Sequence record: NC_019501.1 | DNA from: Enterobacteria phage IME10 | Length of the DNA: 39,646 bases | Strand: one strand, 5' to 3' | Shown here: positions 17,246 through 37,460 of the stretch, piece after piece | How positions within the stretch are numbered: position 1 is the stretch's first letter | How the letters are laid out: the number at the start of each line of letters is the position of its first letter | Translations under genes and position numbers: made by a program | Notes under the pieces: model-generated | The model's input: the letters and a program-made list of their open reading frames with translations, nothing else | Databases searched by the model: none | What the model was told of the DNA's origin: nothing

Positions 17246-17679
17246 GCAGAGTCACCGCGATTATCTCCGCTCTGGTTATCTGCATCATCGTCTGCCTGTC
17301 ATGGGCTGTTAATCATTACCGTGATAACGCCATGACCTACAAAGAACAGCGCGACAAAGCCACATCCATCATCGCTGACATGCAGAAGCATCAACGTGAT
17401 GTAGCAGAACTCGACGCAAGATACACAAAGGAGCTTGCTGATGCTAACGCGACTATCGAAAGCCTCCGTGCTGATGTTTCTGCTGGTCGTAAGCGCCTGC
17501 AAGTCGCCGCCACCTGTGCAAAGTCAACGACCGGAGCCAGCGGCATGGGCCATGGAGAAAGCCCAAGACTTACAGCAGATGCTGAACTCAATTATTACCG
17601 TCTCCGAAGTGGAATCGACAGGATAACCGCGCAGGTTAACTACCTGCAGGAGTACATCAGGACGCAATGCCTGAAATAA
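17242..17679 (+). CDS. Rz: Rz inner-membrane spanin
   Basis: N-terminal transmembrane segment plus coiled coil; N-terminus identical to lambda Rz as remembered, C-terminal half divergent. Confidence 0.85.
17435..17626 (+). CDS. Rz1: Rz1 outer-membrane lipoprotein spanin, embedded in Rz in the +1 frame
   Basis: Lipobox LVVSAC followed by a Pro-rich stretch ([13 protein letters not shown]). True start may be an internal Met. Confidence 0.65.
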
Positions 17680-17710
17680 TTTTTTTGCAAATCACAAAGT
17701 CAATTTAATG

Positions 17711-17735
17711 AGCCTCGCGATGCGGGGCTTTTTAT
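17711..17735 (+). terminator. Rho-independent terminator after the lysis cassette
   Basis: AGCCTCGC-GAT-GCGGGGCT hairpin followed by TTTTTATT. Confidence 0.5.
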
Positions 17736-17757
17736 TCCCAACTCTATAGGTAATTTT

Positions 17758-18258
17758 ATGACCCAGCATATTGGCGTAAAACTGATTAACGCCTTTCCGA
17801 TGACGAGACAGGCATATAACGATTTTCGTGGCTGGCAGCTTCCTGCCGGAGAAAACGGCGAGGACGAAGGCTATCTGGTTGAATATCTGGATGGCGGAAA
17901 ACCTAACACCGATCGCTTTGATGGCTACGTTAGCTGGAGTCCAAAAGAAGTATTCGAAAAGGCTTATCGTCAGGTATCAGGGCTAAGTTTCGGCCTTGCC
18001 ATCGAAGCACTCAAACTGGGTAAGAAAGTTACCCGTGCTGGCTGGAATGGGAAAGGCATGTATCTGCAATTAGTTCAGCCACCGCAATCAGCCACTCCGA
18101 ATGATTGGCGCTATGACGTTACATGTGGTGACGAGTATACATTTGTTCCTGGTGTAAAACTTCTTCCCTGGATTGGGATGAAGACTGCTGATTGTAAATT
18201 TGTTCCGTGGTTGGCGAGTCAGACTGATGTTCTGGCTGAAGACTGGCAAATCATTTAA
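17758..18258 (+). CDS. Accessory protein with a C-terminal DUF2829-like domain (candidate anti-defence)
   Basis: 166 aa. C-terminal half carries [17 protein letters not shown] ... [14 protein letters not shown], which I associate from memory with the small phage DUF2829 family. Sits in the accessory slot between Rz and terS. Confidence 0.5.
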
Positions 18259-18549
18259 CCATGTAGGCATTACAAAGCCCATCTACGGGTGGGCTTGATA
18301 ATGAAACCGTGATTTACATCCCCACAATCCGGGTATGTAAAAGATAGTTCAGGCGAGAACAGATTTAACTAAATCTGTGCACCACCAGTTACGGAAGTAC
18401 AGCGACACAACCCAAGCCAGTAAGTGGGGAAATAACACTGGCAGCCACTGAAAGATGAACCTCCAGCCTTATGGCAAAAAAGATTCTTTGTGGTGGCGGA
18501 CTGATGGAAAGACATCCTAATCAAGCAACCACGCCACAGGGGCATAATT

Positions 18550-18930
18550 ATGAACGACCAGCAAATCGAAAAAGAAATCGTTGAGAAAGGCAAAACCGCT
18601 CCGCGAGTTACCCCGCAGCACATCGAAGACGTGATTAAAAGCGAGCATTACTTTACTGCTTATGATGGACGAAATGGTGCCATTTCCAGCAACGAATATT
18701 GTGGCAGGGAAAAACCAGAAGAAGGCGATCGTGATTTATCACCATTGAAGTTGCTCAATTTCTGCGTACTGGTGCTGAAGAATGGCTTCACCGTCACCGG
18801 AGAGAGTGCCTGTGCAAGTCCGGAAAATTTTGATGCAGAAATTGGTCGGAAGATTGCCAGACAGAATGCTGTAAACAAAATCTGGATGCTCGAAGGTTAC
18901 TTGCTGAAGCAGAAGCTAAGCGAACAGTAG
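18550..18930 (+). CDS. Hypothetical accessory protein (126 aa)
   Basis: Track ORF preceded by about 290 bp of non-coding DNA containing a 9-2-9 palindrome; no confident homology. Confidence 0.45.
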   Translation: MNDQQIEKEIVEKGKTAPRVTPQHIEDVIKSEHYFTAYDGRNGAISSNEYCGREKPEEGDRDLSPLKLLNFCVLVLKNGFTVTGESACASPENFDAEIGRKIARQNAVNKIWMLEGYLLKQKLSEQ

Positions 18931-19033
18931 TTATTACAAAAGCCATTCCCTACAGAGTGGCTTTGATAATGGCTTATACCCTACACGGGATAACTTAACT
19001 GATATCCCTTTTAACGGATAAACGGAGCCAACA

Positions 19034-19276
19034 ATGGCAGAGATTACCCCCATGACTGAAGAACAGAAATTCCAGTTAGAGATTTACAAGCTGGTCATGA
19101 ACCAGAACGCAGCCGCAGAAGAAGCATTTCAATTCATTGGCACTGACGAGCTGAAGCTTGAGCTATTCAAAATTCACTTCCAGTCAGGCGGCGCTAATTC
19201 AGATATCACGATCCGCACATTCGAAGCGGTGCGTAAATCTAAGGAAGCGTTAGACCTGTTCACTACCGGAGCATGA
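19034..19276 (+). CDS. Hypothetical small protein (80 aa)
   Basis: Track ORF just upstream of terS. Confidence 0.4.
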   Translation: MAEITPMTEEQKFQLEIYKLVMNQNAAAEEAFQFIGTDELKLELFKIHFQSGGANSDITIRTFEAVRKSKEALDLFTTGA

Positions 19277-19311
19277 TGCTCAACCTGAAATAACAACTAA
19301 GTGAGATGAAT

Positions 19312-35993: not shown

Positions 35994-37460
35994 ATGAGAA
36001 ATATGAAATTACTCTCAAAAAGACTAGTGGTAATTGTATGTTCTGTATTTATCCTTTCAATTATATTGTGCATACATTTAAGAAAGGGAAACTTTAACCT
36101 CAATAATATAAGTAGCGTACAAAATGCTAATGACATATCAACAACCAATAGTATATTGAATGATGATTTAGTGTTTTCCGAAAGATATGATTCCCTTTTT
36201 TATTACTTCGTGCATTCGTTTGTTAAATATTCTTCAGATGATTATGCTCTTGTTAATTATCCTGGGATGCTATCGACGAGTGGGAATAAGACAAACCAAG
36301 TTGAGGGTACGGCAAGGACGCTACCATTAATTGCTGCATGGGTTTATTCTGGAAGAGATTCAACCATTATCGTTAATGGTAATAAGTTAAATATAGTAGA
36401 TCTGATTAGGAGTAGTATATTGTCTGGAACTAATCCAAGTTCTGTAAACTATTGGGGGGATATACATGATTATGATCAGAGAATTTTAGAGGCCGCAGAT
36501 ATAGTAAGAGTCTTATGGCTTACAAAAAAAGAGATATGGAATCACTTAAAAGATAATGAAAAAAATCAGATAGCTTTGTGGCTGGAGCAAGCTGCATCGG
36601 CGAAAACTGTAAAAAACAATTGGCTACTAGCTCCATTCATAATTCAGAATTTTTTGCAGGATAATGGATATACAGTTAAGGTTAATTACAAAAATTACAC
36701 AGACTTTAAGAAAAACTATCTTGAACACGGATGGTTTAGAGATGGAAATGATGGAGAAGTAGATTTCTATAATACTTGGGGTATATCCTATGACTTATTC
36801 TGGATATCACTTATTACAGATTATGATAATGCTTTTATACTAAAAACACTATCTGAGTCGGCTGATTTCACTTCACATTTAATATCTAAAAATGGCATCC
36901 CGCTTGTTGGTAGAAGTATTTGCTACAGGACTGCAGCACCCACACCTGTTCTAATTGAAGGTCTATTAAAAAATGATGGATATCATCAAGGTTTAGCAAA
37001 ATCAGCATTAGACTATACGTGGAAATATTTTGCAAGCCACAATGCATTAGTATCAGATACATTATCAATGGGGTATTTTAATAATGACAAGCGCTTTGTT
37101 GATAATTATAGCGGGTCAGGAAGTTGCCTGTGGGGAATAAGGTCGTTAGTTGTCGCTTATATGAATGATAAAAAATCATATATCTGGAATGGGAAATATG
37201 AGAGATTGCCTATTGATAATTCTGATTTCATTATCAATGCAGATAAACTTGGTTGGATAGTTGAGGGTAATAAAGATAGTGGAGAGATAAGGGTTATTAT
37301 ACCTGCAAACGAAAAAAACTCACCAAAGATAAATGATACCAATAAACTTAAAGAAGTTATATGGAGAGTTCTTGGTAAAGCAGGAAGAACTAATCAACAT
37401 GACATTGAGTACCTAAAGCCATATTACTCATCACTAGAGCCTATATCTGACGTTGAGTGA
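35994..37460 (+). CDS. Hypothetical signal-anchored protein (488 aa), AT-rich cargo gene
   Basis: Track ORF (alternative start ATG 36003). N-terminal hydrophobic segment KRLVVIVCSVFILSIILCIHL, then an Asn/Lys/Tyr/Trp-rich domain. AT-rich codon usage unlike the rest of the window. Confidence 0.6.
   Translation: MRNMKLLSKRLVVIVCSVFILSIILCIHLRKGNFNLNNISSVQNANDISTTNSILNDDLVFSERYDSLFYYFVHSFVKYSSDDYALVNYPGMLSTSGNKTNQVEGTARTLPLIAAWVYSGRDSTIIVNGNKLNIVDLIRSSILSGTNPSSVNYWGDIHDYDQRILEAADIVRVLWLTKKEIWNHLKDNEKNQIALWLEQAASAKTVKNNWLLAPFIIQNFLQDNGYTVKVNYKNYTDFKKNYLEHGWFRDGNDGEVDFYNTWGISYDLFWISLITDYDNAFILKTLSESADFTSHLISKNGIPLVGRSICYRTAAPTPVLIEGLLKNDGYHQGLAKSALDYTWKYFASHNALVSDTLSMGYFNNDKRFVDNYSGSGSCLWGIRSLVVAYMNDKKSYIWNGKYERLPIDNSDFIINADKLGWIVEGNKDSGEIRVIIPANEKNSPKINDTNKLKEVIWRVLGKAGRTNQHDIEYLKPYYSSLEPISDVE

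Follow-up and report, generated by a model that had tools for sequence, protein, structure and literature searches.

Tad2 tetramers sequester 1''-3' glycocyclic ADP-ribose (gcADPR) and in this way block type I Thoeris (10.1101/2023.05.01.538930). One Tad2 clade binds the histidine-ADP-ribose (His-ADPR) of type II Thoeris (10.1101/2024.01.03.573942), and another has been reported as an inhibitor of type IV Thoeris (PMC13243611). Acb4 of phage SPO1 (PDB 9E4W), a member of Pfam family PF13876, is a tetrameric sponge for 3'3'-cGAMP (3'3'-cyclic GMP-AMP) and related signals of the cyclic-oligonucleotide-based antiphage signalling system (CBASS) (10.1101/2024.12.30.630793). All eight diverse Acb4 homologues purified in that study bound 3'3'-cGAMP and none bound cyclic di-GMP (cGG, c-di-GMP); homologues from phages of Gram-negative hosts also bound 3'3'-cyclic di-AMP (3'3'-cAA), and base specificity varied among the family members (10.1101/2024.12.30.630793). 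Fusions of Tad2 and Acb4 are frequent, and one of them neutralises type I Thoeris as well as type I CBASS (10.1101/2025.07.12.664507). Here we describe a locus of Enterobacteria phage IME10 (NC_019501.1; the analysed window comprises 39,646 nucleotides) which is located between the lysis gene Rz and the small-terminase gene terS. From sequence and model comparisons we propose, with a probability of roughly 0.8, that its first two open reading frames (ORFs), ORF1 and ORF2, are phage sponge genes arranged as a tandem pair and would blunt nucleotide-based bacterial immunity. The family membership of both genes, the fold, the conservation of pocket residues, the gene pairing and the domain fusions on which this proposal is built were observed.

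A first-pass annotation, made from the letters of the sequence, had placed three plus-strand ORFs between the terminator after Rz and terS. All three are present, each with a Shine-Dalgarno-like AGG, AGGGG or GGAG 6-7 nucleotides before its ATG; the genes, domains and hairpins of the locus described below all lie on the plus strand. The first of them, ORF1 (17758..18258), encodes a two-domain protein of 166 residues, in which an N-terminal domain is joined to a sponge domain of the Tad2-like (DUF2829) type. It is matched over its whole length by PHROG 872 (E-value 1.1e-68) and shares 98% protein identity with CDS0064 of phage Huey. The DUF2829 signature which had been noticed in this ORF is borne out by Pfam: residues 77-166 (17986..18255) match PF11195 with 86.5 bits against a cutoff of 25 (E-value 1.8e-24), covering profile positions 2-73 of 73. 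The link of this family to Thoeris anti-defence given there also holds, as Pfam now names PF11195, formerly DUF2829, 'Thoeris anti-defense 2-like'. However, the description as a DUF2829 protein is right for the C-terminal 90 residues, and residues 1-75 have to be added as a separate domain. The GWNGKG motif is found at residues 95-100 (18040-18057) and the second signature motif at residues 150-163 (18205-18246); with 86.5 bits for the Pfam Tad2-like model, the match is far beyond chance. Searches of PDB sequences with the Tad2 part returned ModTad2, SPO1 Tad2, HgmTad2 (deposited as AcrIIA7), SptTad2 and a further AcrIIA7 chain with E-values from 8e-17 to 2e-12.

The structural comparison with Tad2 that had been suggested in the first-pass annotation points in the same direction. 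The AlphaFold2 monomer model of ORF1, built on 51 homologues, reached a mean predicted local distance difference test score (pLDDT) of 85.9. Only about residues 113-129 are unreliable: they lie within a variable insertion (approximately residues 104-137) that is poorly modelled, with a pLDDT below 50 at 113-116 and 121-129. In a Foldseek search against the PDB the top 24 matches of the model were all Tad2 chains (E-values 4.5e-7 to 4.4e-5), among them 8wje, 9eib and 8smf at about 5e-7; the target-normalised template modelling (TM) scores on these 24 chains were 0.64-0.84, and the following match had an E-value of 0.5. The Tad2 fold, an N-terminal helix and an antiparallel sheet with inserted loops, is seen in the model. 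Profile and model comparisons thus support the assignment of the C-terminal part of ORF1 to the Tad2 family. The characterised Tad2 proteins (SPO1 Tad2, HgmTad2/AcrIIA7 and ModTad2) share with residues 77-166 the domain, the fold and the pocket motifs GWNG and W-L-x-S-x-T-D, by which gcADPR is bound in solved complexes. They are 88-104 residues long and lack the 75-residue N-terminal domain that ORF1 adds, and the variable insertion of ORF1 is an allele of its own.

The residues by which HgmTad2 contacts gcADPR (10.1101/2023.11.15.567273) were transferred to ORF1 by a HMMER alignment, and 10 of the 12 pocket residues are identical. W21, N22 and G23 of HgmTad2 correspond to W96, N97 and G98 of ORF1, and M76, V84, W87, L88, S90, T92 and D93 to M141, V149, W151, L152, S154, T156 and D157. 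Several of these positions are known to matter, as the HgmTad2 mutants W21A/N22A and S90A/T92A/D93A no longer bind the ligand (10.1101/2023.11.15.567273). The residues of the cGG pocket of HgmTad2 are not retained: R31 is replaced by Q107, and N85 falls into a gap. Since c-di-GMP is a housekeeping messenger in E. coli, the loss of this second pocket would be sensible for a phage of this host.

The AcrIIA7 entries among the PDB matches lead to a different reading, in which ORF1 and ORF2 would be AcrIIA7-type anti-CRISPR proteins. ORF1 matches chains that bear the name AcrIIA7 or 'Inhibitor of Type II CRISPR-Cas system' in their PDB entries (8kbi, E-value 1.6e-13; 9kzr, 2e-12), and the orthologues of both genes in the phages Huey (PQ850609, CDS0064 and CDS0066) and Louie are labelled 'anti-CRISPR protein'. 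However, when AcrIIA7, which is identical to HgmTad2, was tested again, it inhibited SpyCas9 neither in vitro nor in vivo and proved to be a sponge for gcADPR and cGG (10.1101/2023.11.15.567273). For PF13876 we found no link to CRISPR. In addition, the CRISPR systems of E. coli are, to our knowledge, of type I-E and I-F, not of type II-A. We therefore give the anti-CRISPR reading hardly any credence. The labels on the Huey and Louie genes most likely descend from AcrIIA7 and are likely misleading, so that the present assignment corrects database entries in which both genes appear as 'anti-CRISPR' in recent phage records.

The second gene, ORF2 (18550..18930), had been left unassigned. It encodes a protein of 126 residues that belongs to the Acb4 family (Pfam Phage_gp49_66, PF13876) and is orthologous to gp66 of phage Sf6. 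The Pfam match reaches 115.7 bits (cutoff 27, E-value 1.4e-33) and covers all 82 profile positions, and the identity to Sf6 gp66 (Q716B1), a name-giving member of PF13876, amounts to 98%. The comparison with the DUF2829 and gp49/gp66 profiles, which the first-pass annotation had proposed as a check, hence gives one match for each gene, DUF2829 for ORF1 and PF13876 for ORF2. Sf6 gp66 is itself contained in the list of 1,331 Acb4 homologues (Table S3 of 10.1101/2024.12.30.630793). When a profile of ORF2 relatives was compared with the PDB, 9E4W was the only significant match (E-value 4.7e-5; 0.02 with the single ORF2 sequence). The ORF2 core NGF-x-V-x-G...ENF-x-x-EIGR aligns with SPO1 Acb4, and the ligand contacts F48, F62 and I66 of SPO1 Acb4 are kept as F80, F94 and I98. 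SPO1 Acb4 comprises 96 residues, whereas ORF2 is longer, with an extended N-terminal helical part. Among relatives with about 70% identity to ORF2, one carries a fused Tad2 domain and another a fused Sequestin domain. On this comparison the membership of ORF2 in the Acb4 family is firm, its ligand range not. ORF1 and ORF2 are new members of known families that are already named in Pfam. As a minor observation, residue 70 of ORF2 (18757-18759; LLTFCVLVL) is Asn, and Thr in at least 90% of the relatives including Sf6 gp66.

[quoted passage not shown] Where the second dsRBD helix begins, the RNA-binding motif [KR]-x(1-3)-[KR] has been lost from SPO1 Acb4; some phage dsRBDs retain it (10.64898/2026.07.21.739742). 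Unlike SPO1 Acb4, ORF2 retains a basic R-K-x-x-R motif at the corresponding place (R100-K101-I-A-R104; 18847-18861), which is kept in close relatives and nearly invariant in the ORF2 subfamily. Nevertheless, we regard an RNA-binding function as very unlikely. The eight PF13876 members that bound 3'3'-cGAMP without exception included proteins from phages of Gram-negative hosts, and the Acb4 pocket is strongly positive anyway (10.1101/2024.12.30.630793). Moreover, close relatives of ORF2 are fused to other nucleotide sponges, and genes of the ORF2 type are paired with Tad2.

This pairing also speaks for a sponge function. The island holds two genes of sponge families, ORF1 (Tad2) and ORF2 (Acb4), as separate genes 291 nucleotides apart. 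The same two-gene pair is found in phage N4 (GenBank EF056009, 33632-34485), where gp48 is a PF13876 protein (E-value 8.8e-35) and the adjoining gp49 has the architecture of ORF1, an N-terminal domain followed by a Tad2-like domain (E-value 8e-24), with 47% identity over the full length. N4 belongs to an unrelated phage family (Schitoviridae), its genes are in reversed order, Acb4 before Tad2, and its pair sits in a hotspot beside the virion RNA polymerase gene and not in the lysis-terminase slot used in IME10. The Pfam name 'N4 Gp49' is mismatched at this point, as PF13876 corresponds to gp48 in the GenBank record of N4 and the Tad2-type protein to gp49. For N4-like phages an 'anti-signalling hotspot' has been described that harbours genes of the Tad2, Acb4 and Sequestin type (10.64898/2026.06.04.730250). 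The IME10 island is the lambdoid, P22-like counterpart of this hotspot.

Among 80 IMG/VR contigs with an ORF1-like gene, 34 carry an ORF of the Acb4 family on the same strand within 3 kb, a number that is not a count of independent events since several of these contigs are near-duplicates of one another. In most of the 34 the Acb4-family ORF is located directly upstream or downstream, and in one it is fused. The fusion sponges Tad2-Acb4, Tad2-Sequestin and Acb4-Sequestin (for example those of Pasteurella phage Pm86 and Pseudomonas phage Ab09 gp59) combine the same domains and cover Thoeris as well as CBASS. In contrast to these, the sponges of IME10 are two genes, each followed by its own hairpin, and not one polypeptide. 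Contig 3300009692_000337 of IMG/VR and another contig show three sponge ORFs in a row (Acb4, Sequestin and N-terminal domain with Tad2) or two Acb4 ORFs 3' of the Tad2 gene, which suggests larger anti-signalling clusters elsewhere. Our literature search returned no paper that connects P22-like phages with Acb4 or Tad2.

If ORF1 and ORF2 act as a sponge pair, the Tad2 domain of ORF1 would assemble into a homo-oligomer, as Tad2 proteins are tetramers, with pockets between the protomers. These pockets would sequester ADP-ribose-derived signals made by TIR proteins, either 1''-3' gcADPR or, as in some Tad2 clades, His-ADPR or N7-cADPR, so that the Thoeris effector would never be activated. A selection between gcADPR and His-ADPR by similarity was attempted and rejected, as the scores of ModTad2 and SPO1 Tad2 are too close. 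ORF2 would assemble into a tetramer of the Acb4 type and sequester the cyclic dinucleotides of CBASS, namely those of the 3'3'-cGAMP type, probably also 3'3'-c-di-AMP as observed for phages of Gram-negative hosts, and not c-di-GMP. With regard to timing, the lambdoid late transcript from PR' is antiterminated by Q and reads through terminators; for this reason all three ORFs should be late genes that are co-expressed with virion proteins. Within this operon ORF1 and ORF2 would be made alongside the structural proteins, which are common triggers of Thoeris and CBASS. Oligomeric state, ligands, timing and biological effect are in this way what we infer for the two proteins from their characterised relatives and from the arrangement of the operon.

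Several observations count against this interpretation. In the gcADPR pocket of ORF1 two residues differ from HgmTad2, although only these two (A78 to T143 and T82 to K147), and ModTad2, a binder of His-ADPR, scores slightly above the gcADPR binders against ORF1, a ligand not being readable from the sequence. For ORF2, five of the eight ligand contacts of SPO1 Acb4 are changed (E49 to T81, V56 to C88, Y57 to A89, N63 to D95, which is a backbone contact, and T70 to I102), and because of these differences its specificity may deviate from that of SPO1 Acb4. The promoter scan yielded 4 promoter-like sites versus 3.4 expected, with no plus-strand site upstream of the ORFs, so that the proposed timing is based on the way in which lambdoid late operons are known to be built. 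PADLOC and NCBIfam returned no hits for the three proteins, which is expected because neither of them models anti-defence proteins. Finally, our literature search found no binding or infection study on ORF1, ORF2 or any long Tad2 with an N-terminal domain. Taking these points into account, we still consider a sponge pair as the most probable function. E. coli very commonly carries prophages of the P22-like and lambdoid kind, and paired sponges against Thoeris and CBASS would show how ordinary temperate coliphages counter signalling immunity; Sf6, Huey and Kapi1 are tractable model phages for this question.

The part of ORF1 that merits follow-up is its N-terminal domain (residues 1-75, 17758..17982), a small, beta-rich, highly conserved and sponge-associated domain. 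Residues 1-75 have no match in Pfam even at an E-value of 10 and none among the PDB sequences, and no close solved structure was found; the model predicts mostly beta structure. When 1.84 billion cluster representatives were searched exhaustively with HMMER, a domain of this type was found in at least 1,586 of them at an E-value of 1e-3 or below, and in 849 at 1e-10 or below. The domain is placed N-terminally, C-terminally or apparently stand-alone. Architectures and conservation were counted for the best 150 of the at least 1,586 representatives. The Pfam partners in this set are Tad2-like (51), Sequestin (PF21825; 37) and Acb4 (PF13876; 20). According to a local domain parse, 102 of the 150 are fused to sponge domains of the Tad2, Sequestin, Acb4 or RyR-Tad families. 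The N-terminal domain is followed by Tad2 in 50, by Sequestin in 25, by Acb4 in 7 and by RyR in 1; it is preceded by Acb4 in 5 and stands between Acb4 and Sequestin in 7, and a further 7 show other two- and three-domain orders. The remaining 48 have no recognised partner, and many of them look truncated. Within the same 150 representatives 28 of the 75 positions are at least 90% conserved, many of them aromatic or charged, including K8, R17, Y20, R24, W26, E32, D36, E42, Y43, Y57, W60, F66 and Y70. The domain is among the most conserved regions of these proteins.

A distant homologue is known from RyR Tad of Pectobacterium phage CB1 (gp68), whose N-terminal domain aligns with that of ORF1 over 67 columns (hhalign probability 93%, E-value 2.8e-7). 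Instead of Tad2, the sponge domain attached in gp68 is helical and similar to RyR Repeat12; we confirmed the RyR domain by Pfam. The relationship is further indicated by a Foldseek search of BFVD, in which the N-terminal domain of ORF1 matches YenM_TG1, an RyR-domain protein of Yersinia phage TG1 (E-value 8.6e-5, TM 0.77). In the crystal dimer of RyR Tad the N-terminal 'fold of unknown function' is domain-swapped, and the N fragment of CB1 gp68 alone has no anti-Thoeris-I activity (10.64898/2026.06.04.730250). The N-terminal domain of RyR Tad lacks most of the residues that are invariant in the ORF1-type domain. By analogy, the N-terminal domain of ORF1 most likely functions as a module common to sponge proteins, either for dimerisation by domain swapping or in an accessory role. 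Beyond the RyR Tad preprint, we found no further description of an ORF1-type domain in the literature. Since the queries of the published fusion screen were Pfam families (10.1101/2025.07.12.664507), the domain could not be detected there, and it now provides a concrete, testable lead. A degenerate copy of Acb4 or Sequestin was also considered as its origin and rejected, as there is no profile match and the secondary structure is different (PF21825 is helical, the model mostly beta).

The fusions allow another, less probable explanation, namely that the N-terminal domain is a new sponge or sponge-enhancing module. It might bind a further immune signal in the pockets of a domain-swapped dimer, making ORF1 a sponge with two specificities like the Tad2-Acb4 and Acb4-Sequestin fusions, or it might cross-link sponge oligomers to form assemblies of higher order. 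Such a role is suggested by the association with four unrelated sponge families in either order in the 102 fused representatives, together with the apparently stand-alone forms, and the same guilt-by-fusion logic has previously led to Sequestin (10.1101/2025.07.12.664507). The many conserved aromatic and charged positions are as expected of a nucleotide pocket, and the domain-swapped dimer of the distant RyR Tad relative makes pockets between protomers possible. On the other hand, the gp68 fragment, the sole relative tested, was inactive against type I Thoeris, even if it is divergent and devoid of most of the conserved residues. We regard this explanation as tentative and prefer a dimerisation or accessory module. 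If a sponge or enhancer were nevertheless the right answer, the domain would found a new counter-defence family in phages, and more sponges could be traced through their fusions to it.

The island is located between the end of Rz at 17679 and the start of terS at 19306, the latter being identified by the Pfam model GP3_package (E-value 8.6e-31). The upstream border of the variable slot is the terminator just 3' of Rz (17710..17737), an intrinsic-terminator-like hairpin (17710-17730) followed by the T-run TTTTATT. The consensus scan describes it as a 9-bp stem with 6 GC pairs, folding gives -15.2 kcal/mol (z-score -3.0), and within the scanned stretch it is the sole good plus-strand terminator-like site 5' of the three ORFs. 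Two stable hairpins follow downstream. Hairpin 1 (18268..18303; -20.6 kcal/mol, z-score -4.1) is found directly 3' of the ORF1 stop codon, and hairpin 2 (18929..18974; -20.6 kcal/mol, z-score -4.8, with 0 of 200 shuffles as stable) begins at the stop codon of ORF2. They are homologous to each other in the manner of direct repeats, with the common flanks ATTACAAAGCC ... GGCTTGATAAT and differing stem cores. Both are kept in Huey, Sf6 and a prophage of E. coli EC21Z-014, and neither was found in the P22 locus examined. Morons are recognised by a promoter and a terminator of their own; here, no plus-strand promoter-like site is present 5' of the ORFs, and the strong hairpins after ORF1 and ORF2 lack T-runs. 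The two hairpins could mark the borders of modules, stabilise the RNA as 3' structures or serve as sites of processing.

The variability of the lysis-to-terminase slot, which had been described as a hotspot for accessory genes, is confirmed by related phages and prophages, in which the slot contains Rha, KilA-N, Sf6 gene 65 or a DUF2829 gene. In Sf6, which has no Tad2 gene, hairpin 1 comes after gene 65. Therefore, ORF1 occupies a variable slot that is bordered upstream by the Rz terminator and downstream by hairpin 1. The block from hairpin 1 over the 291-nucleotide spacer, Acb4 and hairpin 2 to the DUF2560 gene (ORF3) is more widely shared than ORF1. This is in accordance with the occurrence of ORF2 DNA in 525 of 5,426 complete E. 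coli genomes, nearly full length in 115 of them, versus ORF1 DNA in 45, where only nucleotides 1-309 are matched. E. coli prophages carry a different allele of the 3' part of ORF1 (18067-18258), which encodes the variable insertion and the last stretch of the Tad2 domain; the allele of the window is that of Huey. As this insertion makes up the cyclic-dinucleotide pocket in HgmTad2, the mosaic structure of the ORF1 3' part may reflect a diversifying ligand range.

The spacer between ORF1 and ORF2 (18259-18549) is shared with Sf6 and predicted to be unusually strongly folded (-82.9 kcal/mol, z-score -2.8, with 0 of 200 shuffles as stable). Further hairpins are found inside it, for example at 18313-18341. 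It gave no Rfam match and contains no convincing ORF; an ORF of 37 residues (18471-18584), which is annotated in Huey, looks spurious. The Rfam scan of the whole window was likewise without a match. Two small genes of related phages are absent from IME10: Sf6 gene 65, which in Huey and the EC21Z-014 prophage lies between Rz and the DUF2829 gene (17680-17757 in IME10), and the small ORF between the DUF2560 gene and terS (orf59c or gene 68; 19277-19305 in IME10), which is present in P22, Sf6 and the EC21Z-014 prophage. The island of IME10 is a minimal version.

The third gene, ORF3 (19034..19276), encodes a DUF2560 protein of 80 residues and ends 29 nucleotides 5' of terS. The match to Pfam PF10834 reaches 143.5 bits (cutoff 25, E-value 2.3e-42), and by position the gene is equivalent to P22 orf80 and Sf6 gp67. 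In the first-pass annotation it was counted as part of a three-gene accessory island. This view holds for ORF1 and ORF2 with their sponge families, whereas ORF3 is lineage-restricted and not a mobile accessory module. It might still be argued that the three ORFs form one anti-defence island with ORF3 as a third inhibitor: the protein is small and predicted to be helical, it has two sponge genes beside it in a slot whose content differs from phage to phage, and known anti-defence genes cluster (10.64898/2026.06.04.730250). We consider this improbable. Among 5.8 billion proteins DUF2560 forms only 93 clusters, all from Enterobacterales and with 0 fusions, as opposed to about 8,000 scored relatives each for ORF1 and ORF2 that reach distant hosts. 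In P22, Sf6, Huey and many prophages its gene keeps its place just 5' of the small-terminase gene, irrespective of the content of the variable slot, and no more than one small ORF intervenes. No structural or family lead was found either: comparisons with the PDB by single sequence and by profile gave nothing significant (best match ribosomal protein L29, E-value 0.17), and a literature search on DUF2560 returned nothing useful. Nothing ties ORF3 to defence. With low confidence, we see it as a lineage-specific small late gene, predicted to be helical and more likely linked to late functions or packaging than to defence.

The window of 39.6 kb represents approximately the whole genome of a P22-like (Lederbergvirus-type) temperate coliphage. 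Its genes include those for a cI-type repressor that carries an S24 peptidase domain, for a DnaB helicase, NinG, a NinI-type phosphatase and the antiterminator Q, and these are followed by the lysis genes S, R and Rz, with Rz1 nested inside Rz. Downstream of these are the gp3-type small terminase, the large terminase (terL), portal, scaffold and coat, and beyond them come the gene for a tailspike with the head-binding domain of P22, the DUF2264 gene and the integrase gene. The nearest relatives in the phage collection are CurroJimenez_Bas106, HZ41, Sf6 and Huey, with about 97% identity across about half of the sequence; this partial-length kinship is the usual mosaic pattern. In P22-like phages, the position between tailspike and integrase is the usual place of lysogenic-conversion genes for O-antigen modification. 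In IME10 this place is taken by the gene for the DUF2264 protein of 488 residues (35994-37460; E-value 3e-63).

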